This document shows positions 6,616 through 27,949 of a stretch of 32,000 nucleotides of DNA, piece after piece (within the stretch, counting starts at the first letter, position 1; each line of letters begins with the position of its first letter). The DNA is from Allocatelliglobosispora scoriae. GTDB taxonomy: Bacteria; Actinomycetota; Actinomycetes; Mycobacteriales; Micromonosporaceae. The DNA lies in assembly GCF_014204945.1 (NCBI RefSeq), contig NZ_JACHMN010000002.1, positions 974,503 to 1,006,502 of the forward strand, given 5' to 3'. A program made the position numbers and the translations under genes. The notes under the pieces were generated by a model that worked only from the letters and a program-made list of their open reading frames with translations, searched no databases and was not told the origin of the DNA.

Positions 6616-8568
6616 CTACAGCGTCAGGGTCCAGCTGTTGATGTAGCCCGTGTCGGCCGAGGCCGCGTCCTGCGCCCGCAGCTTCCAGGTGCCGTTGGCG
6701 ACCTCGCTCGACAGGTTGACCGTGTAGGTCTGGTTGATGTTGTCGGCGCTGCCGCCGGTCCGGTTGTGCAGGAGGTAGAGGGTCCCGTCCGGCGCGACCA
6801 GGTTCACGACGAGGTCGCCCTTGTACGTGTGGACGATGTTCACCGCCACCGTGGAGGTCGCGGTGCCGTTGCGGTTGCAGCCCGCGATGGTGATCGGGCT
6901 CTCCACCGCGGCCCCGTTGTCCGGGATCTGCACGTCGGCGGCGTTGGTGCCGGTGCAGCCCGGGGCGCCGGTGACCGTCAGGGAGTAGGTGACTGTGCGG
7001 GTGGCGCCGGTGCCCGTACCCGTGATGGTGATCGCGTAGGTGCCCGCGGGCGTGGACGCCGTCGTCGCGAGGGTGAGGGTCGACGAGCCGCCGGAGGTGA
7101 CCGACGACGGCGCGAAGGTGGCCGTGGCCCCGGCGGGTAGGCCGGACGCGGCGAGGTTGACGGTCTGGGCCGAGCCGTTGGTGAGGGCCGTGGAGATGGT
7201 GGAGGTCACCGAGCCGCCCGGGGCGACCGAGCCGGACGCGGGGCTGGCCGCGATCGAGAAGTCGTTGGCCGCGGTGCAGTACTGCGCCTGCTTGTTGATG
7301 GCGCGGTAGGGGCAGTCGGCGTACTCCGACAGCAGCAGCACGGCGCTCTTGTTGCGGCTGGTCTGCGCGGTGATGATCTCGTCGGGCGGGTAGAAGCCGC
7401 CGTTGGAGACCGGGTACATCTCGAAGGTGTAGGTCCAGACCTGCTGGTTGCCCCAGAGCCAGTCGGTGATGTCGCCGTCGGTGATGTAGAGGTCACTGCC
7501 CTGCTCGGGGGTGTAGTTGTTGGTCGCGGCCATCTGCTGCCCGATGGCGGCGAAGGTGTTGCGCTGGTCGAGCGTGAGGCCCGGCGCCGTGTCGGCCGTC
7601 GTGTAGCCGAACGGCCACAGGATCAGCTCGCCGTAGGTGTGGAAGTCGATGTTGGCCTTGATCTGCTGCACGCCGCCGACCCGGCGGGAGAGCACGAAGT
7701 CGCGCAGGACCTGCGTCTCCGGCGCGGAGAAGGCCGACGGACCGCGGTAGGTCTCCGACGAGGTGCTGCCGCTGGACCCGCCGCAGCAGCCCCAGTTGTA
7801 GCCGAAGTTGCGGTTGAGGTCGGTGCCGACGTTGGAGGAGCCGCTGTTGGGCTGCCGGTTCTTGCGCCACGACCGGTAGGAGCCGGTGGCGATGTCGTAC
7901 TCGCCGCCGTCCGGGTTGAGGTCCGGGATGATCCAGATCTCGCGCGAGTTGACGGCGGTCGTGACCTGGCTGTCGGTGCCGTAGGAGTCGGTGAAGAGGT
8001 TGGCGAGGTAGAGCGCCATCTCCACGGTGAGGTGCTCGCGGGCGTGCAGGTGCGCGTTGAAGAGCAGCTCCGGCTCGTCCTCGTCGGTCGCGACGTTGTC
8101 GGAGATCTTGAGGGCGACGATGTCACGGCCCTCGTAGGACTGGCCGATCACGGTCTTGCGCGCCAGCGTCGGGTGGTCCGCGACGATCTTGTTGATCTCG
8201 GCGGTCGTCTCGGCGAAGTCGTGGTAGCCGGCGTCCGCCGACGGGAAGCCGTTCAGGCCGGTGCCCGACGGGGACTCCGGGCCGGGCAGCGCCTCCAGCA
8301 GGAAGCCGAGCCTGCGGATCTGCGCGACCTCGTCCGGAGTCGCGGTGATGTAGACGTTGCCGTGTTCGACGAGGTCGATCGCGGCGCCGGTCCTGGCGAC
8401 GGCGTTGCGATCGGCGAGGGTCTTCGGTCCGATGACGACATACTGCGCCGACGCGACGGGTGCGTTGCCCTGATCGATCGGCGGGATCGCGCCGGTGGCC
8501 GGTCCGGTGAAGGTGAGGGACGCGGTCACCGCCAGCGCGGTGATGAGCACGGCGACTCTCGGTCGCAT
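6616..8568 (-). CDS. Secreted M14 zinc carboxypeptidase (carboxypeptidase T-like) with Ig-like linker and C-terminal proprotein-convertase P-domain
   Basis: Signal peptide [27 protein letters not shown]. Zn ligand motif HAREH, with an M14-type core (...NPDGGEYD...). The C-terminal 108 aa (...[33 protein letters not shown]...[26 protein letters not shown]) form a P-domain. GGGAGGAA RBS. Confidence 0.92.
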
Positions 8569-8630
8569 GGGTTCCTCCCGGGGGTAGTGGAGACCCTTAG
8601 GAGATCATGAATTTATACGAGTATCAATGT

Positions 8631-9380
8631 CTACTCGCCGGACAGGATCGCCACCTCCAACCGCCGCAGGCGCGCTCCCGGCTCCATCCCCAGCTCCTCC
8701 GCGAGTGTCTCCCGAGCACGCCGGTAGGCGTGCAACGCCTCGCCGGGACGGCCCGCCCGGTAGAGCGCGATCATCAGCAGCTCCCACATCCGCTCGCGCA
8801 GCGGGTGTCGCGCGACCAGCCCGATCAGCTCCGCCGCCACCTGCGCGCAGCGGCCCAGCTCCAGCTCCGCGGCGAGCAGCTCCTCGGTGGCGTTGAGCCG
8901 CATCTCCTGCAGGCGCGCGACCTCCGCCTGTGCCCACTGCCCGGCCGCGCAGTCCGCCAGCGCCTCCCCGCGCCACAACCCCAGAGCCCGCCGCAGGTAC
9001 GCCGCCGCGGCCTCCGGCGACCCCGAGGCGGCCTCGGCGTGCCCGCGGCCGACGAGGTACTCGAAGCAGTGCACGTCGATCCACTCGGCCGGGACCGCCA
9101 GCGTGTAGCCGGGCGCCCGGGTGGCGATCGGCGAGCCCGCACCCCCGGCGAGCAGCCCGCGCCGCAGGTAGGCGATGTGCGCCCGGAGCGTCTTGGCGGC
9201 ACCCCCGGGCGGCGCGGTGTCCCAGACACCGTCGACGAGGGCGTTGCACGACACCACCTGGGGTACGCGCAGCGCCAGCAGCCCCAGGATCGTCCGCTGC
9301 CGCGGCCCGCCGAGCACCACCGCGCCGCCGTCCCCGCTGACCTGGAGCGGGCCCAGCAGGCGAATCTCCACCGTGGACAT
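8631..9380 (-). CDS. Small SARP (AfsR/DnrI/RedD-type) transcriptional activator: OmpR-like wHTH plus BTAD
   Basis: ATG 9380 with GGAG upstream. The sequence reads MSTVEIRLLGPLQVSG......RQRTILGLLALR.....S...LVDGVWD...P.....TLRAHIAYLRR, followed by a BTAD helical region ...ALYRAGRPGEALHAYRRARETLAEELGMEPGARLRRLE. Confidence 0.9.
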   Translation of the reverse strand: MSTVEIRLLGPLQVSGDGGAVVLGGPRQRTILGLLALRVPQVVSCNALVDGVWDTAPPGGAAKTLRAHIAYLRRGLLAGGAGSPIATRAPGYTLAVPAEWIDVHCFEYLVGRGHAEAASGSPEAAAAYLRRALGLWRGEALADCAAGQWAQAEVARLQEMRLNATEELLAAELELGRCAQVAAELIGLVARHPLRERMWELLMIALYRAGRPGEALHAYRRARETLAEELGMEPGARLRRLEVAILSGE

Positions 9381-9410
9381 CAACTCCGCCCTCCACTCTA
9401 TTGTGGAACT

Positions 9411-9432
9411 TCGATGCATCGATTCATGCATG
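9411..9432. promoter_or_regulatory. Perfect palindromes TCGATGCATCGA and CATGCATG upstream of the small SARP gene
   Basis: The 12-bp palindrome lies at 9411-9422 and the 8-bp palindrome at 9425-9432, 31-52 nt upstream of ATG 9380 in an AT-richer stretch. The core GATGCATC recurs at 20289-20296. Confidence 0.3.
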
Positions 9433-9612: not shown

Positions 9613-10830
9613 TTAGACGGGGACGAAGCCTGCGAAGAGCAGCAGGTTCGGCGAGCCCACGCCGGGGTTGATCACCACATTGGGGGTGGCGTTGTTGACC
9701 AGGGCGAGCGCCGTCTGGTCGGCGTTGTCAGCCGGGAACCGCCAGCGCCACAGCGCCGCGACGCCGGCCGCGTGCGGCGACGCCATCGAGGTGCCCGAGA
9801 GCGTGGCGTAGGCGTTGTCGGCGGTGCCGTACGCGGAGTAGATGCCCTGGCCGGGGGCGAAGAGGTCGAGGCACGGTCCGAAGTTGGAGAAGGTGGCCCG
9901 AGCGTCGGTGTTGGTGGTCGCGCCGACCGTGGTGGCCCTCGGTACCCGGGCCGGGGAGAAGCCGCACGCGTTGAGGTTGGAGTTGCCCGCCGCGACCGAG
10001 TAGTGCACGTTCGCGGTGATCGAGTTGGTCACCGCGGTGTCCAGCGGCGGGAAGGCGCTGCCGCCGAGGCTCATGTTGGCCACGCTCGGCGGCGCCGGGG
10101 AGAGGATCTGCTGCAGCGTGACCCAGTTGACCCCGGCGATGACGCCGGCGGCCGTACCCGAGCCCGCGCAGTTGAGCACCCGGACCGAGATGAGCTTGAC
10201 CTGCTTCGCCACGCCGACCGTCTTGCCGCCGACCGTGCCGGCGACGTGGGTGCCGTGACCGTTGCAGTCGGCACCGGTGCCGCCGAACGCGTCGAAGCCG
10301 GGGACCGCGCGCCCGCCGAACTCGACGTGGGTGTAGCGGATGCCGGTGTCGATGATGTAGGCCCGGACGCCGGGTGCGGTGTTGGCGTAGTGGTACTTGT
10401 TGTCCAGCGGCAGGGAGCGCTCGTCGATCCGGTCCAGGCCCCACGACGGGGTCGGCGTCTGCACGCTGACCTGCGTCGTCACCTCCTGGTCCTGGGCGAC
10501 GTACTCCACCAGCGGGTCGGCCGCGACCCGCGCCGCGGTGGCGTCGTCGGCCGCGATGGCGAAGCCCCGCAGGGCGGTGCCGTACTCGAAGGTCGTGCGC
10601 AGGTTGTACTTCGCCTTCAGCTCGTCGCTCGTATTCGACGGCGACGAGTCCTTGAAGACGACGATGTAGCTGCCGGGGACCGCGCCGGGCGACTCGGCGT
10701 AGAGCACCTTGCCCAGCGTGGTGTTCGCGCTCGCCACAGGCAGCGACGATTGGGCGGGTACGCCGGTCAGACCCACCGCGGCGGCGATACCCACCACGAT
10801 GACGAGCCGACGGATTGAACGATTGTTCAT
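9613..10830 (-). CDS. Secreted S8 (subtilisin/proteinase-K-like) serine peptidase with inhibitor-I9-like propeptide
   Basis: ATG 10830 with AAGGA RBS. Signal peptide MNNRSIRRLVIVVGIAAAVGLTGVPAQS. Catalytic triad contexts are DTGI (Asp), GHGTHVAGT (His) and GTSMASPHAAG (Ser). Confidence 0.93.
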   Translation of the reverse strand: MNNRSIRRLVIVVGIAAAVGLTGVPAQSSLPVASANTTLGKVLYAESPGAVPGSYIVVFKDSSPSNTSDELKAKYNLRTTFEYGTALRGFAIAADDATAARVAADPLVEYVAQDQEVTTQVSVQTPTPSWGLDRIDERSLPLDNKYHYANTAPGVRAYIIDTGIRYTHVEFGGRAVPGFDAFGGTGADCNGHGTHVAGTVGGKTVGVAKQVKLISVRVLNCAGSGTAAGVIAGVNWVTLQQILSPAPPSVANMSLGGSAFPPLDTAVTNSITANVHYSVAAGNSNLNACGFSPARVPRATTVGATTNTDARATFSNFGPCLDLFAPGQGIYSAYGTADNAYATLSGTSMASPHAAGVAALWRWRFPADNADQTALALVNNATPNVVINPGVGSPNLLLFAGFVPV

Positions 10831-10924
10831 TGGCCATCCTTCGGTTGATGTGACGGTGCGGCGGGTGCGCACATCTCACCGGTGGACGGTTGGCTTTCGG
10901 TTGCGGTTCGGTTGGGGTGCGGCG

Positions 10925-11371
10925 TCAGGATCGGTTGATCAGGATGATCGCGTCCAGGATGCGGTGCCAGTCCAGCTCGCCGAGCGGCCGGTCTGCGGTC
11001 GCGGCGACGGCCGCCATCGCGCCGAGCAGCTTCTGGCGCTGGTCGAGCAGCGCTGTGCCGCCCGCTTCGGCGAGGCGGCCGGCCTCAGCGGCGAAGCGCG
11101 CCGTTCTGGCGTACGCCACCAGGGTTTCTGGAAGCGCGACCGGCTCGACCGGAGCATCGTCGGCGACGAGCTCGACGGCGAGCCGGGCGCCGAGGGCCTC
11201 GGCGAGCGCGGCGAGGGCTGCGACCGTGGGATTGCCGCGACCGTTCTCCAGATTGGCGATGTAGGGCACGGAGAGTCCGGCCTCGACGGCGACCGAGGCG
11301 ATCGTGCGCCCGGCGGCCGTGCGGCGGGCCCGCAGCCGCCGCCCCAGCTCCGCCGTGGATTCTGTTCTCAC
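10925..11371 (-). CDS. XRE-family HTH transcriptional regulator
   Basis: In-frame GTG at 11371; the track ORF start at 11767 overlaps the divergent MFS gene and is rejected. The HTH reads LGRRLRARRTAAGRTIASVAVEAGLSVPYIANLENGRGNPTVAALAALAEALG. Confidence 0.85.
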   Translation of the reverse strand: MRTESTAELGRRLRARRTAAGRTIASVAVEAGLSVPYIANLENGRGNPTVAALAALAEALGARLAVELVADDAPVEPVALPETLVAYARTARFAAEAGRLAEAGGTALLDQRQKLLGAMAAVAATADRPLGELDWHRILDAIILINRS

Positions 11372-11373
11372 AA

Positions 11374-11396
11374 AACAAATCTTGCCACAGATTGTT
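11374..11396. promoter_or_regulatory. Imperfect inverted repeat AACAAATCT-N6-AGATTGTT in the XRE/MFS divergent intergenic region
   Basis: This 48-bp AT-rich spacer separates divergent starts at 11371 and 11420. It is a candidate operator for the XRE regulator. Confidence 0.35.
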
Positions 11397-11419
11397 CTGT
11401 CGGAATAGAGTCGCCGACC

Positions 11420-12622
11420 ATGCGCGTCCCTCAGAACCGCGACTTCCGTCTGCTGTGGACCGGCGGCGTCATCTCCGGCCTCGGCTCCTGGCTGCTCATC
11501 ATCGCCGTGCCTGTGCAGGTCTTCCGCCTCACCGGTTCGCCGCTCGCCACCGGGCTGACGGTCGCCGTCGAATCGCTGCCCGCGATGCTGCTCGGGCCCT
11601 GGGCCGGCGTCCTCGTCGACCACTGGAACCGGCGGCGCATCATCGTCGGCGCCAACCTCGCCAGCGCCGCCGGGGTCGGTCTGATCCTGCTCGGCGACAC
11701 CCCGGCCCGCGTCGGCTTCATCTGGGCCGGGCTGCTGCTGGAGGCGGTCGCCGTCGTCCTCCTGCAACCCGCGACGCGCAGCATCGTCCCCGCCATCCTC
11801 GGAACCGGCGACGACCTCGTCACCGCGAACGCCGTCTCGGCCTTCACCGGCGGCGCGATGCGGCTCATCGGTCCCCCGCTCGGCACCGCCCTACTCGCCT
11901 GGGGCGGCATCGGGCTCGTCGCCTGGCTCGACGCGGCGACCTACCTCGTCGCCGCCGGGCTCACCTGCCTCGTCCGCGTCGCCGATCCCCCACGACCGGC
12001 GCTCGTCCTGCGCGAGGTCCCCCGGCACCTGGTCGACGGGCTCCGCCATCTGCGCCGGTCCCGGCTGCTGCGCGGGATGCTCGCCGCGAGCTGGGTCTAC
12101 TGGGCGGCCAACGCCGCGCTGACCGCGCTGCTCGTCCCCTTCGTCGTGCAGCGGCTCGGGCGCGACGGCGGCGACCTGGGCTACGTCATCGCCGGGCTGG
12201 GATGCGGCTTCCTCGTCGGGTCGGCGGTCAGCGGGCGACTCATCGGCCCGTACTCGACGCAGGCGGTTCTGACCTGGTCCTATGGGCTGGTCGGGCTCGC
12301 GTTCCTGCTGCTGTTCAACGCGCCGACGCTGTGGGTGGCGGTGCTGGGAGCCGCGGCGGCGGGAGTGCCGGGGTCGGTGGCGATGGTCGCGACCCAGCAC
12401 CGGATCCAGGTGGCGGCTCCGGAGGAGGTGCTGGGGCGGGTGGGCGCGGTCTTCTACGCCAGCGACGCCACGGCCGCCGTCGCCGGCGCCTTGATCGCCC
12501 CACTGGTCGTCGCCGTAAGCGGCCTCTCGACCGGGCTCAACGCGGTCAGCGTCCTCGTCATCGCGGTCGCGCCGATGACGCTGTTCCTGCTCCGCGACCC
12601 CGCCGGTGCGGAGAGTCGGTAG
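11420..12622 (+). CDS. MFS transporter (EntS/MFS_3-like exporter)
   Basis: In-frame ATG 11420 (MRVPQNRDFRLLWTGGVISGLGSWLLIIAVPVQVFRLTGSPLATG...). The N-terminal 237 aa of track ORF 10709..12622 are shadow sequence. Multiple hydrophobic helices throughout. Confidence 0.88.
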   Translation: MRVPQNRDFRLLWTGGVISGLGSWLLIIAVPVQVFRLTGSPLATGLTVAVESLPAMLLGPWAGVLVDHWNRRRIIVGANLASAAGVGLILLGDTPARVGFIWAGLLLEAVAVVLLQPATRSIVPAILGTGDDLVTANAVSAFTGGAMRLIGPPLGTALLAWGGIGLVAWLDAATYLVAAGLTCLVRVADPPRPALVLREVPRHLVDGLRHLRRSRLLRGMLAASWVYWAANAALTALLVPFVVQRLGRDGGDLGYVIAGLGCGFLVGSAVSGRLIGPYSTQAVLTWSYGLVGLAFLLLFNAPTLWVAVLGAAAAGVPGSVAMVATQHRIQVAAPEEVLGRVGAVFYASDATAAVAGALIAPLVVAVSGLSTGLNAVSVLVIAVAPMTLFLLRDPAGAESR

Positions 12623-12665: not shown

Positions 12666-14390
12666 GTGTCGTATGTCTTCCTCTCCTACGGCCACGGCGA
12701 CGCAGCCGACTACGTCGAACGGCTCGCCGGATGGCTGGGCGAGGCCGGCGTGCCGATCTGGTACGACAAGGAGATCATCTCGGGTCACCGCTGGTCACGC
12801 GTCATCCAGCAGCGGATCGAGGGCTGCTCCGCGTTCATCGTCGTCATGACGCCGCAGGCGGACCAGTCGGAGTGGGTGGAGCGGGAGCTCACCCTCGCCG
12901 AGAGCCTGGGCAAACCGGTGCTGCCGATGCTGCTCGCCGGTCGGCCGTTCTTCCGGCTCGGCAACCGGCAGTTCGAGGATGTCACCGATACGGCGCTGCC
13001 CGGCTCGGCATTCCTCGCCACCGTCCGCAGCCTGGCCGGGGTCACTCCCCCGGCCCCGCTGACCGTCCTCGGGGCCGCCGAACCGCCGCCCGTGCAAACC
13101 GCCGAACCGGTGCCCGTGCAAACCGCCGAACCGGTGCCCGTGCAAACCGCTGAACCGCTGTCCCTGCGGTCCGGTGAACCGCTGTCCTCCGCGCGGACAG
13201 GTGAACCGCGGCAACGGCAGCCGTCGCCCGGCCGGCCGCGGCTCGGCACCCGGCGCGTCCGGCTCCTGGCCCTCACCGCGTCCGCGGTCGCCGTCGTGCT
13301 GGTCGGGTCGCTGCTCGTGCGGCAGTTCGGCCGGGAGAGCGACAAGCCGTCCGCGCCGCCGGACACCGCAGCCCACGGCACGACTCCGGCCCTCGCCATC
13401 AGCCCGGACGGTCGCCTCCTCTACGTCGCCATCACCCGCATGCACATCACCGGAGGGACCCGAACCCTCACGACCGGCAGCCTGGTCGCCGTCAACACAC
13501 AGGCCGGGACCGTCATCCCGAACTCCCACGCCGAAAACGGCGGGAATGGCATGTCGATCACCAGCGCACCGGACGACGCCGCGATCACGGCGGACGGCAA
13601 GCGGCTCTACCTCGGCCGCTTCACCGACCCGTTCCTGATCCGGATCACCGCGCTGGTCCCGGAGCCGAGAGGTATCGGGCGAGGGGTGGACCTCGGCACC
13701 ACTGCCGACCCGGTCGAGGGGGTCCGCAGCGTGGCGTTGAGCCCGGACGGCAAGCGCGCCTACCTGGCCGACGAGCCGACCGCCACCGTCTCCGTGGTCG
13801 ACACGGTGACGGAGAAGCAGGTCGGCAATCCGATCACCGTCGGCCGGGCGCCGCGCGACCTGGTCATGAACCCGACCGGCACGCGGCTCTTCGCCGCCGG
13901 TTCGGCCGCCTCCACGGTCAGCGTCGTCGACACCGCGACCAACGAGGTCATCGCCGCCCCCGCCGTCGGCCGCGGCCCGCGCGGGCTGTTCATCAGGGGA
14001 GACGGGCGCCGGCTCTACGTCGCCAACGCCGAGGCGGGCGGAGTCTCGATCATCGACACCGGCGACAACACGGTGGTGACGCAGTTCCCTGCGGCCTGCG
14101 GAGCGCATCCGATCGCGGTGGCGGTCTCCGACCAGGGCAACCGGCTGCACACCATCTGCGAGGACTCCGACGTGGTCGGCGTCCAGGATGCCGGGAGCGG
14201 GGCGGCTCTCGGATCTCCCACCGCCCGGACCACGCGCCCGGCGAGGTCGATGCTGCTCAGCCCCGACGGGAAGCGGCTGTATGTGGCGGTCGTGGAGGCG
14301 AAGACGGTCACCATCACGATGATCGACACCACCACCAACACCGCAGTGATGGACCCCATCGTCGCCGACACCTGGCTCGTCGACGGTTAG
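12666..14390 (+). CDS. TIR-domain protein with one TM helix and a C-terminal 7-bladed YVTN-type beta-propeller
   Basis: The TIR_2-like N-terminus reads VSYVFLSYGHGDAADYVERLAGWLGEAGVPIWYDKEI..G..W...I...I..CSAFIVVMTPQADQSEWVERELTLA, with candidate catalytic Glu codon at 12885-12887. The start is GTG 12666, or alternatively GTG 12606 overlapping the MFS stop. A Pro-rich linker follows. RRVR plus LLALTASAVAVVLVGSLLV forms the TM. Seven repeats follow, of the form SPDG(K/R)RLYVA...VSV(V/I)DT....V... Confidence 0.85.
   Translation: MSYVFLSYGHGDAADYVERLAGWLGEAGVPIWYDKEIISGHRWSRVIQQRIEGCSAFIVVMTPQADQSEWVERELTLAESLGKPVLPMLLAGRPFFRLGNRQFEDVTDTALPGSAFLATVRSLAGVTPPAPLTVLGAAEPPPVQTAEPVPVQTAEPVPVQTAEPLSLRSGEPLSSARTGEPRQRQPSPGRPRLGTRRVRLLALTASAVAVVLVGSLLVRQFGRESDKPSAPPDTAAHGTTPALAISPDGRLLYVAITRMHITGGTRTLTTGSLVAVNTQAGTVIPNSHAENGGNGMSITSAPDDAAITADGKRLYLGRFTDPFLIRITALVPEPRGIGRGVDLGTTADPVEGVRSVALSPDGKRAYLADEPTATVSVVDTVTEKQVGNPITVGRAPRDLVMNPTGTRLFAAGSAASTVSVVDTATNEVIAAPAVGRGPRGLFIRGDGRRLYVANAEAGGVSIIDTGDNTVVTQFPAACGAHPIAVAVSDQGNRLHTICEDSDVVGVQDAGSGAALGSPTARTTRPARSMLLSPDGKRLYVAVVEAKTVTITMIDTTTNTAVMDPIVADTWLVDG
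13092..13163 (+). repeat. In-frame 24-bp tandem repeat (3 units) encoding VQTAEPVP in the TIR-to-TM linker
   Basis: GTGCAAACCGCCGAACCGGTGCCC is identical at 13092-13115 and 13116-13139. A third, diverged unit starts at 13140. Degenerate (S/T)GEPL units follow. Confidence 0.9.
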
Positions 14391-14452
14391 TCGGCCACTC
14401 TTCGTGCCGAACCCGGGTGCTGCCATCGGCCAATGTGCGTCACACCCGTGAC

Positions 14453-14914
14453 TCAGATGAATCCGAGTTCCTCATCCAGGGCTGTCAGGTCATTCGCCGC
14501 GCGCAGCGTGCGCGCGTCATCTGCACGCTGGTAATCCATCAGGGACTTGAGTTCTATCCGTCGGTGGCTGCCCACCATTCGGTACCGGATCTCACCAGCG
14601 TCGAGCAGCCCGATCAAGAACGGCCGCGACACGTTCAACAGGTCGGCTGCCTGCTGGCTCGTCAGCTCGGATTCCATCGGCAGCACCGCCACACCATGCC
14701 CCTCGGCGAGGTGCGACAGGACTCGGGCCAGCAGAACGACGGCCTCCCGAGGGACCGACAACTCGTCGTGGGGCGAATCGGCCACCACGATGTGGACCTC
14801 TTGCGGACCGTCCGGATGGTTGCGCAGGTAGGAGCGAACTCGATCTAGCGCCTGAGAGGCGACCTCGATAACACGAGCACTCGGCGGTTCAGCATTCAGC
14901 GGGATGGCGGTCAC
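14453..14914 (-). CDS. Excisionase/MerR-like (HTH_17) DNA-binding protein, antitoxin-like, with no cognate toxin gene nearby
   Basis: GTG 14914 with GAGGT RBS. LTSQQAADLLNVSRPFLIGLLDAGEIRYRMVGSHRRIELKSLMDY is the HTH_17 pattern seen in PIN-associated antitoxins. Only 62 nt separate its stop from the convergent TIR gene stop. Confidence 0.7.
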   Translation of the reverse strand: MTAIPLNAEPPSARVIEVASQALDRVRSYLRNHPDGPQEVHIVVADSPHDELSVPREAVVLLARVLSHLAEGHGVAVLPMESELTSQQAADLLNVSRPFLIGLLDAGEIRYRMVGSHRRIELKSLMDYQRADDARTLRAANDLTALDEELGFI

Positions 14915-15014: not shown

Positions 15015-16616
15015 CTAGATGGAGCTCGGCTGGATGTGCCTGGGGTGGTTGAGCCACCAGTAGGCGGCGATCCGGGCCGGTGCAGCGAGCCGCGAGTCGT
15101 CCTTGATCCGCCGCAGTACGCCCTGCTGGCGGGCGATCCCCGCCGCGTAGGCGACGGCGCGGGCGTTGCCGGCGCCGGCCGGGGTCGCGATCATGCCGCA
15201 GAGATCGTTCCAGAACGCGGTCGGCATCCGAGTATCGCTCGGCACGTGGGCGACCGACCAGATGGCGGCGTCGCGGACCGGGGCGGCCACGGTGGGATCC
15301 AGGATCAGCTCCTGTACCGCCTCCCGGCCGAGGTGATCACCGACAGCGGTGAGCGACTGGACCAGGTGCGACGCGAGCACGACGTCCGCGCGGCTGACCG
15401 GCGTGCGCAGCTCGGCGGTGATCACTCGCCCGGCCGATCGGCGGTACGGCGTGGCGGCGAGCATCCGTGCGGCGATCACACGGCGCGAGAAGTGCGGGTG
15501 CAGCAGGGCTTCCTCGACGAGCCAGGAGAGCATGAGATCGTCACCGGGTTGATGATCCGGAACGCATGCGGCGATCATCCGGGTGATCCGATCGACCAGC
15601 GGCTGATGCTGCCGGCTCGTCCGGCCGCTGGTATAGACACTGTGCACCAGCTCATCGCGGGCGATGGCGGGTGCCAGCGCCCGCCGCAGGCTGGTCTCGA
15701 TGTGCGGTGTCCGCCTGAGCAGGTCGGCGGCCGCCATGCGCGCCGGGACGAGACGCTCCTGGGTGAGCAGCGCGGCAGCCTCCCTGGTCAGGATTGCCCG
15801 ATCAGCCGGCGAGAAGTGCCCGCGAGTGACCTTCTCCGCGGCGGTCCACCAGGCGGCCTGCCGCGCCTGTTCGTTGATCGGCCGGACGATGGCGTTGATC
15901 ACGTGCCGGGCGGCCAGGCGGCCGCCCGCGGCCTCCAGGATCGTCATCGGCTCGTTGAACACCTGGTTGGTGGGGTCGCTCACCACCGCGGCGCAGACGG
16001 CGATCAAGTCCGGTGCGAAGGCGCGGTTGCGCAGCAGCCGGTGTGCCGCCTCGTTGCGGTTGATCCAGCCCTGCCCGTCCGAGATGAGCAGCTCCCGGAG
16101 CAGGCGATCGGTGACGGCCGGGATGTGCGGTTTGATCGCTCGGCCCTTGGCCACGACGAGGCCGCAGCTCAAGGCATCCCAGTCGTTTCCCGTCATGAGC
16201 TCCGTGCTGAGTGCTTTCTCCAGCAACTCGTCCACGACCACGGGATCACTGACGGGGCGGGCCATCACCCGCTTTCCGCCGCCGCTATGAATTTCACGAT
16301 AGATGAGATCCGCGGTGGCGGTCAGAATGGCCATCGGTAGGCCAAGCAATTCCTCATACCGGCGGATGACCGCATAACCGGGAGGGTCGACGCCCCGCTC
16401 CCATCGCGATATCTGCGCGCGATCCGCACTCCTCGTGGAACCTCCACCAAGGAATGCTCGGGAGAATTCCCGGGTTCGGTGCATTCCATGACTCGAGTCC
16501 AACAGCCGGTTGGCTCTCAGCAGCCATGCGACGCGCTGGACCCGACCCGGACCATCCGGACCGAAGCTGGTGACGGCAGGGGAGACAGGCCTGCCCCGCA
16601 TTCGCGGCTCGTCCAT
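15015..16616 (-). CDS. Hypothetical protein: N-terminal XRE-like HTH plus ~400-aa alpha-helical (HEAT/ARM-like) solenoid
   Basis: 533 aa. The N-terminus (VAWLLRANRLL...REFSRAF...STRSADRAQISRWERGVDPPGYAVIRRYEELLGLP) resembles HTH_31/XRE. The rest is helix-rich and repetitive, with no P-loop or catalytic motif that I can recognise. Confidence 0.6.
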   Translation of the reverse strand: MDEPRMRGRPVSPAVTSFGPDGPGRVQRVAWLLRANRLLDSSHGMHRTREFSRAFLGGGSTRSADRAQISRWERGVDPPGYAVIRRYEELLGLPMAILTATADLIYREIHSGGGKRVMARPVSDPVVVDELLEKALSTELMTGNDWDALSCGLVVAKGRAIKPHIPAVTDRLLRELLISDGQGWINRNEAAHRLLRNRAFAPDLIAVCAAVVSDPTNQVFNEPMTILEAAGGRLAARHVINAIVRPINEQARQAAWWTAAEKVTRGHFSPADRAILTREAAALLTQERLVPARMAAADLLRRTPHIETSLRRALAPAIARDELVHSVYTSGRTSRQHQPLVDRITRMIAACVPDHQPGDDLMLSWLVEEALLHPHFSRRVIAARMLAATPYRRSAGRVITAELRTPVSRADVVLASHLVQSLTAVGDHLGREAVQELILDPTVAAPVRDAAIWSVAHVPSDTRMPTAFWNDLCGMIATPAGAGNARAVAYAAGIARQQGVLRRIKDDSRLAAPARIAAYWWLNHPRHIQPSSI

Positions 16617-16838: not shown

Positions 16839-17231
16839 ATGCTCACCGAACTCAGGTCACCGACGTCTGCGAGGCGTCCGGTCGCCCGCCTCGTCGCGGC
16901 GCTGATGATCGTCGCGGCCGGTGCGATGGCACCGTTCGCCCTCAGCGAGCCGGCCGCCGCGGCCGCCTGCAACATCTGGCCCGGCACCAACGAGAACCGC
17001 CCCGGGGCCTTCCTCGGCGCCGGAGTGAACATCCGGACCGGTCCGGGCACCAACTGCGTCGTTCTCGGCGCGGGCTACACCAACCACAGCGTCACCTACC
17101 GCTGCTGGACCTGGGGCGACAACGTCAACGGCACCTCCTCCTGGACGCTGCTGAGGGACAACTCCACCGGCGTCACCGGCTGGGTGAACGACAGCCTGCT
17201 CAGCAACTTCGGCTCCCAGCAGTTCTGCTAG
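16839..17231 (+). CDS. Small secreted bacterial-SH3 (SH3b) domain protein
   Basis: GGAGGT RBS and signal peptide ...LVAALMIVAAGAMAPFALSEPAAA. GVNIRTGPGTNCVVLGAGYTNHSVTYRCWTWGDNVNGTSSWTLLRDNSTGVTGWVNDSLL fits the SH3_3 pattern. Four Cys residues. Confidence 0.75.
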   Translation: MLTELRSPTSARRPVARLVAALMIVAAGAMAPFALSEPAAAAACNIWPGTNENRPGAFLGAGVNIRTGPGTNCVVLGAGYTNHSVTYRCWTWGDNVNGTSSWTLLRDNSTGVTGWVNDSLLSNFGSQQFC

Positions 17232-17408: not shown

Positions 17409-18704
17409 GTGCGTACCGCCATCGTGTTGTTCACCCGCGACCTGCGGGTGCGCGACAACCCCGCGCTGCATGCCGCCGTGGCCGCCGCCGACCGCGTCGT
17501 GCCGCTCTTCGTCGCCGACCCCGGCCTGCGCGTGCACCCGCACCGGCAGCGCTTCCTCGCCGAGTGCCTCGCCGACCTGCGCGAATCGCTCCGCCAGCGG
17601 GGCGGCGACCTGGTCGTGCGCCGAGGCGATCCGGTGGCCGAGGCGGTGAAGCTCGCCAGGCAGGTCGGCGCGTTCGGCATCGCCGCCTCCGCCGACGTCA
17701 GCGTCTATGCCCGGCGGCGCGAGCGGCGCCTCACCGACGCCTGCGCGGCTGAAGGGATCTCGCTGCGGCTGCACCCCGGGGTGACGATCGTCGAGCCGGG
17801 CGCGGTGCGTCCGTCGACGGGCGGCGACCACTACAAGGTCTTCACGCCCTACTGGCGGGCCTGGCAGCAGGTCACGCCCCGCGAGCGCGCCGCGACGCCG
17901 CGCACGATCGCCCTCCCCGACGGCGTCACCGGCGCCGATCCGCTCACCGTGCTCGGGCCGGTCCCGGCCGCGAACCCGCAGGCCGCGCGGGGCGGCGAGG
18001 CCGAGGCGCTGCGGCGCCTGAAGAGCTTCGATCCATCGGGGTACGCCGACCAGCACGACGACCTGCCCGGTGACGCGACATCGCGCCTGAGTTCCTACCT
18101 GCACTTCGGCTGCGTCTCCCCGCAGGCGGTCGCCTCCACGGTGGAGAACGAGGCGTTCGTCCGGCAGCTGTGCTGGCGGGACTTCTACCACCAGGTGCTG
18201 CACTCGTTCGGCGATCTGCCGTCGAAGGCCTACCGGACCGGTGCGGTCGAGGACTGGCGCACCGACGAGCACGCGCTGGACGCCTGGCGGGAGGGGCAGA
18301 CCGGCATCCCGATCGTCGACGCCGGGATGCGGCAGCTCGCGGCCGAGGGGTTCATGCACAACCGGGCCCGGATGATCACCGCTTCCTATCTGACCAAGCA
18401 GCTCGGGCTGGACTGGCGTGACGGTGCGGCGCACTTCATGCACCTGCTCACCGACGCCGATGTCGCCAACAACTTCGGCAACTGGCAGTGGATCGCGGGG
18501 ACCGGCAACGACACGAAGCCCTACCGGCGGTTCAATCCCCTGCGCCAGGCTGAGCGCTTCGACCCGGACGGCGACTACGTCCGGCGCTACATCCCGGAGC
18601 TCGCCGGTGTCGAGGGCAAGGCCGTGCACCGCCCGTGGCTGCTGAGCGGCGGCCTCTTAGGCACCGTCGACTACGCGAAGCCGCTGATCGACCCGCCCCA
18701 GTGA
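17409..18704 (+). CDS. phr: Deoxyribodipyrimidine photolyase (class I CPD photolyase/cryptochrome family)
   Basis: N-terminal IVLFTRDLRVRDNPAL. The FAD-binding region reads TSRLSSYLHFGCVSP, WRDFYH, TGIPIVDAGMRQL, GFMHNRARM, NNFGNWQW. GTG start. Confidence 0.95.
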   Translation: MRTAIVLFTRDLRVRDNPALHAAVAAADRVVPLFVADPGLRVHPHRQRFLAECLADLRESLRQRGGDLVVRRGDPVAEAVKLARQVGAFGIAASADVSVYARRRERRLTDACAAEGISLRLHPGVTIVEPGAVRPSTGGDHYKVFTPYWRAWQQVTPRERAATPRTIALPDGVTGADPLTVLGPVPAANPQAARGGEAEALRRLKSFDPSGYADQHDDLPGDATSRLSSYLHFGCVSPQAVASTVENEAFVRQLCWRDFYHQVLHSFGDLPSKAYRTGAVEDWRTDEHALDAWREGQTGIPIVDAGMRQLAAEGFMHNRARMITASYLTKQLGLDWRDGAAHFMHLLTDADVANNFGNWQWIAGTGNDTKPYRRFNPLRQAERFDPDGDYVRRYIPELAGVEGKAVHRPWLLSGGLLGTVDYAKPLIDPPQ

Positions 18705-18795: not shown

Positions 18796-20256
<1,461 letters not shown>

Positions 20257-20286: not shown

Positions 20287-20298
20287 GTGATGCATCAC
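20287..20298. promoter_or_regulatory. Perfect 12-bp palindrome GTGATGCATCAC in the S1-protease/Crp divergent promoter region
   Basis: It has GTGA/TCAC half-sites, like CRP boxes but with 4-nt rather than 6-nt spacing. It lies 77 nt upstream of the Crp-family gene start and is a candidate autoregulatory site. Confidence 0.35.
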
Positions 20299-20374
20299 AA
20301 TATGTCAATTTAGTAGATTGATGTGTCCTGCTCCGTCGTCATATACTCCTCTCTCTCCTTCGAGGGGCGACGCT

Positions 20375-21070
20375 ATGAGACGACGACAGCCGGACCGGCG
20401 ACCGTGGCCGGCGGACAGCTTCCTCGCGGAACTCGCCCCCGACGATCTCGAAGCGCTCATCGCCGCGGGCACCACCCGTGTCTACGACCGCCAGGCGGTG
20501 CTGATCGCCGAGGGCGCCACCGATACCGAGGCACACCTGCTGCTCACCGGCTGCGTCCGGGTGGAGGGCCACACGTCGGCCGGATCCAGCACCCTGCTCG
20601 CCATCCGCATCGGCGGCGACATCGTCGGCGAGCTCGCGGCACTGCACGGCAACCCGCGCTCCACGACGGTCGTCGCCGTCACGCGTACGTCGGTGCGGGT
20701 CATCGACGGGCTGCGGTTCCGGGAGATCGTCAACGCCCGCCCGGCGATCGCGGCGGCCATCCAGCGGACCGTCAGCACCAAGCTGCTCGCCGCCACCCGC
20801 TACCGCATCGACGTGGGCTCCTCCTCCGTGCTCGCCCGGGTGGCGCGGGTCCTGCTGCACCTCGGCGAGGTCTACGGGCGGACCACCTCGCCGGGCACCC
20901 TGATCGACCTGCCGCTGAGCCAGCGCGACCTGTCGTCGCTGGTCGGCGCCGCCGAGCCTAGCGTCTACCGGGCCATCACCGACCTGCGCCGCATGGGGGC
21001 GCTCACCACCGGGTACCGCCGGATCGTCATCACCGACCACGCCCGGCTCCACAAGACCGCAGACTCCTGA
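20375..21070 (+). CDS. Crp/Fnr-family transcriptional regulator (cNMP-binding domain plus C-terminal HTH)
   Basis: ATG 20375 with GAGGGG upstream. The beta-roll has a phosphate-binding cassette, GDIVGELAALHGNPRSTTVVA (GEL...RS(T/A) as in CRP). The C-terminal HTH reads SQRDLSSLVGAAEPSVYRAITDLRRMG. Confidence 0.9.
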   Translation: MRRRQPDRRPWPADSFLAELAPDDLEALIAAGTTRVYDRQAVLIAEGATDTEAHLLLTGCVRVEGHTSAGSSTLLAIRIGGDIVGELAALHGNPRSTTVVAVTRTSVRVIDGLRFREIVNARPAIAAAIQRTVSTKLLAATRYRIDVGSSSVLARVARVLLHLGEVYGRTTSPGTLIDLPLSQRDLSSLVGAAEPSVYRAITDLRRMGALTTGYRRIVITDHARLHKTADS

Positions 21071-21113
21071 ACGTGGCCACTTCTCGTCGGCTCCGGCTGA
21101 TAGAAATATCGCT

Positions 21114-22373
21114 ATGAATCCGTGGCTGATCGATCAGGTGGTCACCGATCCCGCGGCCATCGCGTCCTCGGCGGAGTGGGTCGCGGGGCTCGGCCCCCGC
21201 GGTGATCAGTTCGATCCCACGGTCCCGACATACGCGGTGCGGGTGCGGGAGATCGCGCTGCGGGAGCGGACCTGGCTACAGCTCCTGCGCGGGCCCGACG
21301 TGCGGATCGACATCCTGGCGATCCCGGGCAACCTCGCCTGGCACGAGATCAGCGACGGCGCGATCACCGCGCGATTCCCCGGCGTCGGCGGCGGCCGGCG
21401 GCTCCCCCTCGACGACCGGGGACTGCTCGCCTATTACGGCCAGCCGCAGCACTTCCTCTCCTTCGCCATGATCGCCTCATCGGACCGGCCCGGCACCGCC
21501 GACCTCCGGGATCTGCTGCGCCAGGACATCCACGCCGAGCGGCTCGCGACGGCCCGCGCCGCGTTCGCCGACGCGTCGACCGGCGACCCCGCGTCGCTCA
21601 GCGCAGCGCTGACGGCGGCGAAGTCGGCGACCGAGATCGCCTACCAGGCGGTGCGCTCGACCGGTGGCGCCGTCATCGGCGTCTACCGCGGCGACCGGCT
21701 GGAGTACCCCGATCTGTTCGGCCTCGGCCGCAACCCCGCCGACCACGACTCCTACGACCAGGGCGGCTTCTCGCTCTGGTACGAGGTGGTCGAGACCGCG
21801 CCGCAGGAGCCGGTCGGGCTGCAGAACCGGATGGTGATCGTCGCCGACGTCGCCGGCTACAGCCCTCGCCCCGAACCGCTGCAGGAGGAGATCCAGCACC
21901 GGCTGCACCGGCTGATGGCGCAGGTGGTCGCGGATCTGAAAGTACGCGAGGCCGGGGTGCAGCGGCAGCCCACGGGTGACGGCGTCAACGTGGTCCTGCC
22001 CGCGGACATCGACCACAGCACGGTCCTGCCGGTGCTGCTGCGCACGATGAAGACCCGGCTGGCCTACGACAACGCCGGGCACGACGACCAGATGCGGGTC
22101 CGCCTCGCGGTCCACATCGGAATGGTGCGCGTGGCGCCGCTGGGCTTCACCGGTGGCGGACTGGTCACCGCGAGCCGGTTGGTCGACAGCCTCGCACTGC
22201 GCACGGTGCTGCAGACGCGGCCGGAGCTGGAGCTGGCGGCGATCGTCTCCGACGTGGTGCACCACGATGTGGCGATACACGGATTCGCTGGTCTCGACCC
22301 GGCCGGATTCGAGGGCGCCGACGTGACCGTGAAGACGTTCCAGGGCAAGGGCTGGATCTGGGTCGCGGAGTGA
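21114..22373 (+). CDS. Two-domain protein: unknown N-terminal ~235 aa plus C-terminal class-III nucleotidyl-cyclase-like domain
   Basis: Residues ~238-417 align by eye to the CHD fold. VIVADVAGYS corresponds to (V/I)LFADIVGFT (metal Asp D245). QPTGDGVNVVL corresponds to K(T/I)GDA(Y/F)MAVF (D289). RLAVHIGMVRVAPLGFTGGGLVTASRL corresponds to R(I/V)GIH(T/S)GPV..G..G..VN.A(A/S)RL. ADVTVKTFQGKGWIWV corresponds to the ..V.LKGK...V.VY.L tail. The usual Asn of VN is Thr here. Confidence 0.6.
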   Translation: MNPWLIDQVVTDPAAIASSAEWVAGLGPRGDQFDPTVPTYAVRVREIALRERTWLQLLRGPDVRIDILAIPGNLAWHEISDGAITARFPGVGGGRRLPLDDRGLLAYYGQPQHFLSFAMIASSDRPGTADLRDLLRQDIHAERLATARAAFADASTGDPASLSAALTAAKSATEIAYQAVRSTGGAVIGVYRGDRLEYPDLFGLGRNPADHDSYDQGGFSLWYEVVETAPQEPVGLQNRMVIVADVAGYSPRPEPLQEEIQHRLHRLMAQVVADLKVREAGVQRQPTGDGVNVVLPADIDHSTVLPVLLRTMKTRLAYDNAGHDDQMRVRLAVHIGMVRVAPLGFTGGGLVTASRLVDSLALRTVLQTRPELELAAIVSDVVHHDVAIHGFAGLDPAGFEGADVTVKTFQGKGWIWVAE

Positions 22374-23140: not shown

Positions 23141-24133
23141 CTACCTCTGCGGGACCTCCGCCGAGCCGTCCCGCCCGTCGCGATCGGCGACGCTGCTCAG
23201 CAGCTCGCTCACGACCGCCAGGCAGCGCCGAGGCGAGTTGTCCCCGCCGCAGTCGACGACCAGATCCGCGCCACCGGCTCGCAACCGGGCCGGTGAGGTG
23301 GGGAAGTCGAGCGGGAAGCTCAGCTCCCACGCCTCGTCGCCGGCGGTGAGGTGATAGGTCAGCGACAGTCCGGTGAGGACCAGCCTGCTGTCCGGGAAGC
23401 AGCGGCGCAGCTCGGCGTCGAAGACACGCAGGAAGCTCGAGCCCCACGGGCTGGCGTGCCAGCCGTCGGGCACCCGGCGAGCGGCGGTGCCGCCCGACTG
23501 GCCGGCCCGGTGGTCCGCACGCTCGACATGCCAGGCCGACCCCGCGCCGGCCGGGTCGGCGATGATGCGGTCGCGGCGGGCCGAGGCGGCGATGGGGCTC
23601 TCCCCCGGCAGCACGACGAACTGCCCCGCGCTGAACCCGCGCCGGTCCCGGTCGAAGAGGTAGGCGTGCAGGGTCACGACGAGGTCGTTTCCAGCCTGGC
23701 GCCGGACCGGTCCCCGGACCTCGGGCCGGCTGACCCGGCGGCGCGCGCCGACCTCGTCGACCCGGATGTTGGCGATGCAGACGAGGAAGCGCTGGAAACC
23801 GTTGGCCTGCAGCGTTCGGTAGACGGTCGACGCGTCGCCGCCGCTGGGCTCGGCGAGGTTGAGCCCGTGGTGCGAGTGCCAGTCCCCGATGTGCTGCAGC
23901 CCGTGCCGTGCCTGCAGCGCTCTGCCCCGCTCGCTCAGGTAGCGCACGTCCTGGAAGAACGCGGCGGTCTCGTGCCGCGCCTGCGGCCCGGGCCCGAGGG
24001 TGAGCTGCACCGCCGGGGAGCCGCTGTGCGTCCAGAACCCGAAGAGGTCGCCCCCGGTCTCGCGGTCCGGGTACTCCAGCACCCAGTCGGCGATCTCCTC
24101 CAGATCCTGCTCGTAGACCATCACCCGGAACAC
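23141..24133 (-). CDS. JAB/MPN (JAMM-type) metallopeptidase fused to an uncharacterised C-terminal domain (possibly UBC/RWD-like)
   Basis: N-terminal active-site Glu context RETGGDLFGFW (E25). The metal motif is DWHSHHGLNLAEPSGGD, that is H-x-H-x8-S-x2-D, one residue longer than canonical JAMM. C-terminal residues ~222-316 read FLRVFDAELRRCFPDSRLVLTGLSLTYHLTAGDEAWELSFPLDFPTSPARLRAGGADLVVDCGG. The start is GTG 24133 or ATG 24121. Confidence 0.8.
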   Translation of the reverse strand: MFRVMVYEQDLEEIADWVLEYPDRETGGDLFGFWTHSGSPAVQLTLGPGPQARHETAAFFQDVRYLSERGRALQARHGLQHIGDWHSHHGLNLAEPSGGDASTVYRTLQANGFQRFLVCIANIRVDEVGARRRVSRPEVRGPVRRQAGNDLVVTLHAYLFDRDRRGFSAGQFVVLPGESPIAASARRDRIIADPAGAGSAWHVERADHRAGQSGGTAARRVPDGWHASPWGSSFLRVFDAELRRCFPDSRLVLTGLSLTYHLTAGDEAWELSFPLDFPTSPARLRAGGADLVVDCGGDNSPRRCLAVVSELLSSVADRDGRDGSAEVPQR

Positions 24134-24177
24134 GCCGCCACCACCTCGGCCAGGGTGGGCTGCAGCAGGTCGCTCAT
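24121..24177 (-). other. 18-codon bridging ORF (MSDLLQPTLAEVVAACSG) overlapping both neighbours (ATGA upstream, TGATG downstream)
   Basis: ATG 24177-24175 overlaps the TGA (24176-24174) of the 57-aa gene. Its own TGA (24123-24121) overlaps ATG 24121-24119 in the JAB frame. I read this directly from the sequence. Confidence 0.3.
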
Positions 24178-24347
24178 CGGAAATACCCGCTCACGGCGGC
24201 ATCGGTCGCGATCGTGTCGTCGGGCTGCGGCTCCCCGGTGACGACGAGCAGGCCGCTGCGCGTATCGAAGACCAGCTCCTGGCCCGCCCCGCCCGCCACG
24301 TCCCGCAGGGTCGAATCCACCCCCGCCGGTCTGATGCTGTCTGACAT
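24174..24347 (-). CDS. 57-aa protein of unknown function, first gene of the JAB operon
   Basis: A strong SD (AGGAGGAG) lies 5 nt upstream of ATG 24347. The protein is MSDSIRPAGVDSTLRDVAGGAGQELVFDTRSGLLVVTGEPQPDDTIATDAAVSGYFR. The longer track version (106 aa) begins inside the upstream terminator and is rejected. Confidence 0.6.
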   Translation of the reverse strand: MSDSIRPAGVDSTLRDVAGGAGQELVFDTRSGLLVVTGEPQPDDTIATDAAVSGYFR

Positions 24348-27870: not shown

Positions 27871-27949
27871 CGTCACGAGTACATGGTGCAGAGTGTCCAG
27901 TCGGCAGACAAGGCTCATAGGACCTATCCGGGCCGATCGGTCCGAGCGG

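Follow-up and report, generated by a model that had tools for sequence, protein, structure and literature searches.

We have analysed a 32,000-nucleotide (nt) stretch of DNA from Allocatelliglobosispora scoriae (Micromonosporaceae; contig NZ_JACHMN010000002.1, positions 974,503 to 1,006,502), hereafter the window, whose overall G+C content is ~70%. At positions 12666–14390 it carries a gene for a protein of 574 amino acids (aa) that, with high confidence, consists of an N-terminal TIR domain, one transmembrane (TM) helix and a YVTN beta-propeller, the last predicted to lie outside the cell. The product was 100% identical to the A. scoriae protein P0001 of NCBI, which is named "YVTN family beta-propeller protein" only, the TIR domain having no place in the public name. 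The NCBI protein starts at the same GTG (12666), and GGGGTG, found 5 nt upstream of this codon, is a plausible Shine-Dalgarno sequence or ribosome-binding site. An initial annotation made from the sequence alone had also considered a start at GTG 12606, which would overlap the preceding MFS gene. This start was rejected: NCBI takes 12666, the 20 added codons showed no real similarity to the N-terminal stretch of the orthologues, and the TIR beta-A strand starts within the first 3–10 residues in most relatives. The G+C content at third codon positions (GC3) of the open reading frame (ORF) was 0.89, as in the real genes of the window. The gene and its parts are as follows.

12666–14390, plus strand: TIR-TM-propeller gene, GTG start, TAG stop, 574 aa (ORF list, coordinates checked)
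12666–13040, plus strand: TIR domain, residues 1–125, predicted cytoplasmic (TIR_2 profile, AlphaFold2 [AF2], Foldseek)
12873–12887, plus strand: W70-V-E-R-E74 (WxxxE) motif, aligning to SARM1 WVHKE, PdTIR and AbTir
12885–12887, plus strand: E74, putative catalytic glutamate, pairing with SARM1 E642
13041–13262, plus strand: disordered Pro-rich linker, residues 126–199 (AF2 predicted local distance difference test [pLDDT] <50, translation)
13075–13167, plus strand: 24-nt tandem repeat, 3.9 copies, coding for (P)VQTAEPV repeats (Tandem Repeats Finder score 144, 91% matches)
13230–13262, plus strand: Arg cluster GRPRLGTRRVR at the C-terminal end of the linker (translation)
13263–13319, plus strand: single TM helix, residues 200–218 (Kyte-Doolittle 2.54)
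13383–14375, plus strand: seven-bladed YVTN/lactonase-type beta-propeller, residues 240–570, predicted extracytoplasmic (TIGR02276, PF10282, AF2, Foldseek)
14097–14159, plus strand: conserved pair formed by the only two Cys of the propeller, C478 (14097–14099) and C498 (14157–14159)

The TIR domain, which the initial annotation had recognised by its TIR_2 hallmarks, was confirmed by the Pfam TIR_2 profile (PF13676, residues 4–107 of 574, E 6.6e-18, 65.8 bits against a cutoff of 28), and the motifs VFLSYGHGD, WYD and SEWVEREL were found in the translation. The AF2 model of the isolated domain had a pLDDT of 93. When this model was submitted to Foldseek, the top match was AbTir (7uxu, E 6e-7, TM-scores of 0.67/0.70), with further matches to SARM1, the SPARTA TIR-APAZ, BtpA, PdTIR and RPS4. 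A phmmer search of the PDB sequences aligned the domain to PdTIR (E 2.8e-6), a TIR-SAVED protein, a TIR-NLR, BtTir, AbTir and SARM1. The PADLOC matches were at the TIR level only (SAVED_TIR, E 1e-13; ThsB, E 1e-5), with the ThsB_TIR profile scoring 22.5 bits against a cutoff of 21.2, and the other effector models of NCBIfam and PADLOC likewise matched nothing beyond the TIR portion.

We have then looked at the glutamate that had been proposed to occupy the catalytic position of TIRs that cleave nicotinamide adenine dinucleotide (NAD+; NADases). When aligned to SARM1, residue 4 of the query corresponded to chain residue 564 (full-length numbering), and SARM1 had an 8-residue insertion ahead of the motif. 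Since these residues pair and this is the single insertion, E74 falls on SARM1 E642, the catalytic glutamate of that enzyme (E208 being its AbTir counterpart), and the proposed position was thereby upheld. For a broader comparison, a TIR subfamily was defined by a 4-sequence profile, which gave 37 loci in species-representative genomes. Residues D34, W70, V71 and E74 were invariant in 34/34 aligned members, which argues for the enzymatic function being kept. E74 and the fold matches argue for a TIR domain of the enzymatic, NAD-cleaving type, with the activity itself being predicted. The subfamily also has a conserved TIR surface of its own, G92-x-PFF...Q-x-EDVT...LP.

The protein's C-terminal half matched the TIGR02276 YVTN repeat (E 1e-28, 98.9 bits against a cutoff of 27.85, with four repeats passing) and the Pfam Lactonase family PF10282 (E 1.3e-11, 44.7 bits against 21.7). 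The AF2 model contained seven four-stranded blades, the number that had been read from the sequence initially, with a pLDDT >90 over most of residues 350–570 and lower values in blades 1–2. The best Foldseek match was 1l0q, an archaeal S-layer YVTN domain (E 6.7e-24); leptospiral Lp49, the periplasmic YncE of E. coli (TMt 0.74–0.79) and hydrazine synthase beta were also retrieved. The solved folds nearest to the propeller (the 1l0q S-layer domain, Lp49 and YncE) are all extracytoplasmic. The match to the stabiliser propeller of the mycobacterial MmpL3/TtfA complex was weak, with 49 bits, far below the cutoff of 600. C478 and C498 were invariant and kept the same 20-residue spacing in all three aligned orthologues, which suggests a candidate extracytoplasmic disulfide. 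The same propeller type was found joined, through one helix, to a Ser/Thr kinase (P0019, P0040, P0046, P0093) or to Hsp70 (e.g., P0086). Because of these links to kinase and Hsp70 domains, the propeller is best described, at the level of domain composition, as an exchangeable surface module, of which the TIR would be one among several cytosolic outputs (kinase, Hsp70, TIR).

Between the two domains, the Pro-rich repeat linker, the GRPRLGTRRVR cluster and the one TM helix of the initial annotation were all recovered, by the repeat finder, in the translation and as a single Kyte-Doolittle peak, respectively. The helix, LLALTASAVAVVLVGSLLV, is the sole strongly hydrophobic segment of the protein (2.54, with the next distinct peak at 1.26), and a corresponding helix was present in the orthologues and in the TIR-TM relatives. 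The 24-nt tandem repeat is not present in the orthologues and thus represents a recent expansion; such an expansion could change the linker length from strain to strain.

Five independent indications agreed with the predicted type II single-pass layout, with the TIR inside and the propeller outside, and so supported the topology put forward initially, still as a prediction. There is no signal peptide, and a folded N-terminal domain is followed by the single helix. The 15 residues before the helix comprise 5 K/R and 0 D/E, while those after it comprise 3 and 3, which fits the positive-inside rule with the TIR inside. A K/R excess on the TIR side was seen in 7/7 TIR-TM relatives examined, and on the N-terminal side also in the kinase-TM-propeller proteins P0019, P0040, P0046 and P0093. 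The existence of relatives with a kinase or Hsp70 domain in place of the TIR likewise favours this orientation. The third indication is the conserved Cys pair, with no other Cys in the propeller. Moreover, the lone post-TIR helix of the relatives is mostly followed by domains of exported type (YVTN, SH3_3, FGE-sulfatase, TPR, small Cys-rich), with the exception of L008, which has WD40 repeats, a domain commoner in the cytoplasm. Finally, the orthologues have an N-terminal membrane hairpin that is basic at both ends and has an acidic loop, and these charges again placed the TIR inside. L114 (TIR, hydrophobic helix, AAA), the sole relative with a P-loop ATPase domain behind a hydrophobic region, was considered as a counter-example and rejected, as a two-helix hairpin would retain the ATPase inside.

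Proteins colinear with that of the window were very few. A phmmer search against 1.84 billion cluster representatives gave a list dominated by giant multi-propeller proteins and only two end-to-end matches, P0001 itself and the 638-aa metagenomic P0002. Pattern scans added L006, a 620-aa protein of Asanoa hainanensis, and L039, which comes from the same organism as P0002, since L039 is syntenic with L001. This leaves only three other colinear loci, namely L006 of Asanoa and the pair L001 and L039, both of a single organism that occurs in two metagenomes. The identity with these orthologues was ~47–49% in the TIR and 38–44% in the propeller. P0002/L039 (L039:2341–4254) and L006 (5668–7527) share a conserved two-helix membrane hairpin before the TIR (RWLIxLGVTAAGF...PFxWWAxQPIE). 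Phage searches returned no TIR match, and plasmid searches no full-length match, only propeller-level ones. What is new here, on the predicted domain order, is an enzymatic-type TIR in a membrane-receptor layout, the colinear form of which is very rare.

The wider TIR subfamily shows that the architecture is no one-off, as its TIR is also joined through a TM helix to other ectodomains in filamentous bacteria. The majority of the 37 loci were from Micromonosporaceae (Catelliglobosispora, Catellatospora, Asanoa, Dactylosporangium) and Chloroflexota (Anaerolineae, Aggregatilineales), the minor sources being a few other actinobacterial loci (Acidimicrobiia, Nonomuraea) and single metagenome-assembled genomes (MAGs), Rhodothermales and unclassified. 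The TIR is mostly N-terminal, and its partners include FGE-sulfatase (8 members), WD40 (6 members), TPR and an Hsp70 fragment. A single helix followed by an ectodomain was found in 5/34 members, and comparable arrangements occurred in more distant metagenomic proteins.

L006: YVTN propeller behind the helix
L008 (5992–7590): seven WD40 repeats behind the helix
L027 (5995–7728): SH3_3 behind the helix
L034 (1–1662): SH3_3 behind the helix
L021: small Cys-rich domain behind the helix
L058 (1213–2763), more distant metagenomic TIR_2 protein: TIR-TM-FGE-sulfatase
L117 (5001–7112), more distant metagenomic TIR_2 protein: TIR-TM-TPR
L046 (5025–7403), more distant metagenomic protein: N-terminal TIR, OmpR-type winged-helix Trans_reg_C, one TM helix, periplasmic-type TPRs
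L103, more distant metagenomic protein: TIR-TM, then 984 aa with no assigned domain

These TIR-TM-ectodomain proteins together suggest a wider membrane-spanning class, present mainly in Actinomycetota and Anaerolineae among the loci compared, and the predicted architecture makes the window protein one of a small, recurrent TIR-TM-ectodomain set in filamentous bacteria. Other arrangements were also seen. P0060 combines a TIR with numerous membrane helices in one block and with a YVTN propeller, and in P0121 (243 aa) and L004 the same TIR carries a short membrane tail and no ectodomain. A profile search with the TIR only (4 sequences) retrieved mostly short metagenomic proteins of less than ~220 aa, some of which are probably fragments. 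By its domains, L046 is a ToxR/CadC-like membrane transcription factor bearing a TIR, and the 1375-aa metagenomic protein at L090:4983–9107 has three TIR_2 domains followed by ~11 WD40 repeats.

The genes around the TIR-TM-propeller gene are the following.

6616–8604, minus strand: secreted M14 carboxypeptidase with P-domain
8631–9431, minus strand: SARP/BTAD regulator
9613–10872, minus strand: secreted S8 subtilase with I9 propeptide
10925–11389, minus strand: XRE regulator, divergent from the MFS gene
11420–12622, plus strand: MFS_3/EntS-like exporter (MFS_1/MFS_3, TIGR00900)
14453–14914, minus strand: excisionase-family helix-turn-helix (HTH) protein (HTH_17)
15015–16616, minus strand: 533-aa protein with a weak HTH_3 match, no family above threshold
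16839–17231, plus strand: SH3_3 protein
17409–18704, plus strand: photolyase
18796–20256, minus strand: secreted trypsin with He_PIG and P-domain
20291–21070, plus strand: Crp-type regulator (cNMP_binding and HTH_Crp_2)
20919–22373, plus strand: 484-aa ORF with high GC3, no Pfam or NCBIfam match
23141–24190, minus strand: Prok-JAB domain protein
24853–27996, minus strand: large AfsR/SARP-type regulator of 1047 aa (Trans_reg_C, BTAD, NB-ARC/AAA_16 STAND NTPase, TPR)

The gap between the MFS stop and GTG 12666 measures 43 nt by coordinates, correcting the 44 nt given initially. The only sigma-70-like promoter site, at 11382–11411, precedes the MFS gene, and a scan of the gap showed neither a promoter-like nor a terminator-like site. 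Because of such a short gap free of either kind of site, local co-transcription of the two plus-strand genes, which had been suggested before, is possible. A functional link between them found no support, the neighbourhood not being conserved, and a functional operon with XRE/MFS was rejected, as the pairing is not kept beside the orthologues. The neighbours of L001 are LacI and CopC/CopD, and those of L006 an SBF transporter, a GFA protein and an aldehyde dehydrogenase. An all-against-all BLASTP of the ORFs of 41 loci revealed no neighbour family in more than 3 loci; the recurrent families were just the TIR gene and antisense shadow ORFs. Since the orthologues' neighbours are entirely different and no neighbour family exceeds this number, the TIR-TM-propeller gene is, from the gene order compared, best treated as a stand-alone unit.

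In the scans of the window genes, we have found no ThsA, SAVED, STING, cyclase, CD-NTase or NTPase partner near the TIR gene, in line with the earlier statement that no ThsA-like partner is nearby. PADLOC gave nothing defence-specific among the neighbours, only generic HTH and subtilase matches and the cNMP-binding match of the Crp-type regulator, and the remainder of the window has the gene content of an ordinary chromosome. The latter, encoded 6 kb away (20291–21070), scored against the PADLOC PycTIR/PycC models via its cyclic-nucleotide-binding domain only and is not a TIR; it could be taken wrongly for a Pycsar component. The Prok-JAB protein (23141–24190) reached 30.5 bits against the anti-phage 6A-MBL cap2_3 model, far below the cutoff of 320. 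No second TIR gene was present beside any subfamily member, and no protease partner was conserved across the 41 loci. Three secreted peptidases (M14, S8, trypsin) flank the TIR locus, and in Catelliglobosispora koreensis (L002) a soluble TIR-subfamily member likewise has an S8 subtilase ORF directly downstream. This S8 subtilase/TIR pairing, seen in two loci only, is probably a coincidence. The G+C content drops to 0.64–0.65 between positions 14400 and 17000, compared with ~0.70–0.74 in the flanks, in a segment that holds two minus-strand genes (HTH_17 and the 533-aa protein) and that may be what is left of an integrated element. Neither a tRNA nor an integrase was found in the window.

How could such a protein work? 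TIR NADases (SARM1, AbTir, TIR-SAVED, TIR-STING, plant TNLs) are active only once their TIRs are brought together, the active site being completed across the TIR-TIR interface, and in receptor kinases that bear propellers or PASTA domains outside the cell, signalling proceeds through association driven by the ectodomain. On the most likely reading, the window protein would be a self-contained receptor-effector whose TIR NADase is turned on when the ectodomains cluster. We put this reading slightly below an even chance, its topology, NADase activity, clustering, ligand and role in immunity or conflict all being predicted. The propeller would bind an extracellular or envelope-associated ligand, probably a multivalent one, and ligand binding would gather several receptor molecules in the membrane. 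The 75-residue flexible linker would let the clustered TIR domains form an oligomer, and the assembled TIRs would cleave NAD+. The resulting NAD+ depletion would stop growth or kill the hyphal compartment; alternatively, the output would be a diffusible signal derived from adenosine diphosphate ribose (ADPR), read by an unlinked protein. Depletion is the simplest output, because there is no conserved downstream effector. An extended version of the proposal, which we regard as rather doubtful, is that of a hitherto unrecognised class of immune receptors on the bacterial surface with a TIR-TM-ectodomain plan (YVTN, WD40, SH3_3, FGE-sulfatase or TPR), found mainly in filamentous multicellular bacteria (Micromonosporaceae, Anaerolineae). 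Such receptors would sense phage particles, competitors or damage signals outside the cell and directly trigger the cytosolic NADase, with the response beginning before foreign material reaches the cytoplasm, and would in function be an enzymatic equivalent of animal Toll-like receptors.

Several points weigh against the receptor-effector reading. The window gene does not have the N-terminal hairpin of its orthologues and has the MFS 3' end at that position. Some Glu-bearing TIRs have no activity or serve as scaffolds. The locus belongs to ordinary chromosomal DNA and not to a defence island, and the colinear family is too small for testing diversifying selection on the propeller. In addition, AF2 assigned the linker and TM region a pLDDT <50 and did not model the TM helix as a helix; with such low confidence there, the topology is predicted from hydrophobicity and charge rules only. 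The propeller could also serve as an anchor to the cell wall or surface layer and not as a sensor, with the TIR held at the membrane and activated either by a cue from the cytoplasm or by proteolysis that frees it from the tether, an explanation we find unlikely. It would agree with the known occurrence of YVTN propellers in structural surface-layer proteins (1l0q being the top fold match), with the short membrane tails of P0121 and L004, which bear the same TIR and no ectodomain, and with a precedent in amoebae, where membrane tethering has been proposed as a restraint on the TIR NADase TirC (PMC13142454). Yet the same propeller type stands in for PASTA/NHL-like sensor domains on receptor kinases, varied ligand-binding ectodomains (FGE-sulfatase, SH3_3, WD40, TPR) are found on the TIR subfamily, and a protease partner is not conserved.

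A role in envelope or developmental signalling instead of immunity also has a low probability in our judgement. The propeller would then monitor the cell's own envelope or an environmental molecule, and the TIR would make a local NAD-derived signal or tune NAD+ as hyphae develop or come under stress. The neighbours are ordinary (a sigma factor, SARP regulators, secreted peptidases, the MFS exporter, the photolyase), with no defence genes among them, the propeller has its sub-threshold match to the MmpL3/TtfA stabiliser (49 bits against 600), and there are no phage homologues and no full-length plasmid homologues. This role sits poorly with a family that is patchy and very rare, unlike a housekeeping function, and with the rapid swapping of C-terminal domains in one TIR subfamily, which is typical of conflict systems of multicellular bacteria (framework in PMC7159879). 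If the TIR were instead a non-enzymatic scaffold, recruiting a cytoplasmic partner through TIR-TIR or other contacts as in animal Toll-like receptors (TLRs), the layout similar to that of TLR/IL-1R proteins (ectodomain, one helix, cytosolic TIR) would be explained, and the conserved surface around G92 could be the interaction site. However, the WxxxE motif with its catalytic Glu is unchanged in 34/34 members, the nearest relatives by structure are enzymes, and neither a second TIR gene nor a conserved partner gene lies near the members, which makes a scaffold quite improbable. It is highly improbable that the window gene is a decaying copy, i.e., a 5'-truncated, non-functional derivative of an ancestral hairpin-TIR-TM-propeller gene. 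The missing hairpin, the MFS 3' end filling the upstream space and the recent repeat expansion in the linker would be compatible with decay, but the ORF is intact with a GC3 of 0.89, it has kept every invariant TIR residue as well as the two conserved Cys, and the TIR-TM relatives L008, L021, L027 and L034 likewise have no hairpin.

To our knowledge, the characterised bacterial TIR systems all respond to intracellular cues. If the receptor-effector reading is correct, the window protein would provide outside-in immune or death signalling in one bacterial polypeptide, and would follow the receptor logic of animal TLRs in an independent, enzymatic form. With its small size (574 aa), its stand-alone gene and an obvious point mutant, E74A, the protein lends itself to a direct test of this idea. 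Were the idea wrong, it would still be a clean case of actinomycetes swapping cytosolic modules (kinase, Hsp70, TIR) on a shared surface propeller. In the open-access literature, we have found no description of a bacterial TIR-TM-ectodomain receptor, and an earlier mention elsewhere is possible. What has been described are TIR fusions to TPR, WD40, FGE-sulfatase (FGS) and STAND in multicellular bacteria, and kinase-propeller fusions in actinobacteria (PMC7159879; PMC10907252; PMC7075850).

We have finally compared the window protein with known systems. Its likeness to Thoeris, to the TIR-SAVED and TIR-STING effectors of CBASS and to the PycTIR of Pycsar is at the TIR level only. Membership in Thoeris was rejected, as there is no ThsA (SIR2/SLOG or Macro/TM) in the scanned window genes or beside the orthologues, and so was a CBASS or Pycsar effector, with no fused SAVED, STING or cNMP-binding sensor and no neighbouring cyclase in the window. 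The TIR-NLR/Avs STAND proteins were discarded because the protein has no P-loop domain, residues 126–199 being the Pro-rich linker, and SPARTA because its defining partner or domains were looked for and were absent. The soluble TIR-WD40, TIR-TPR and TIR-FGE-sulfatase proteins share the TIR subfamily, the phyla and a two-module sensor-effector plan with no NTPase, the identity to the TIR-WD40 protein P0071 reaching up to 58%; they have no membrane helix, however, and their repeat domain would face the cytoplasm. Toll-like and IL-1 receptors resemble the window protein in having an ectodomain, a single membrane helix and a cytosolic TIR. Whereas they are type I proteins with a leucine-rich repeat (LRR) or immunoglobulin (Ig) ectodomain and a C-terminal scaffold TIR, none of which applies here, the window protein has an N-terminal TIR (type II), a YVTN propeller and the catalytic Glu, and no adaptor genes.

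The NAD+-cleaving TIRs (AbTir, PdTIR, BtpA, SARM1 and the SPARTA TIR-APAZ) share the fold and the WxxxE motif and gave the best sequence and structure matches. These proteins are soluble and are governed by a cytosolic coiled coil, ARM/SAM or Argonaute, and none of them has a TM helix and an ectodomain. The PknD-type kinases (P0019, P0040, P0046, P0093) have the same order of parts, with an N-terminal catalytic domain, a Pro/Arg-rich linker, one helix and a YVTN propeller that is 30–40% identical to that of the window. Their output is phosphorylation by the kinase, whereas the window protein has a TIR and no Pkinase match in Pfam. By analogy, the window protein is thus like a hybrid of the two, with the layout and propeller of a PknD-type receptor kinase and the predicted output of a SARM1/AbTir-type NADase.

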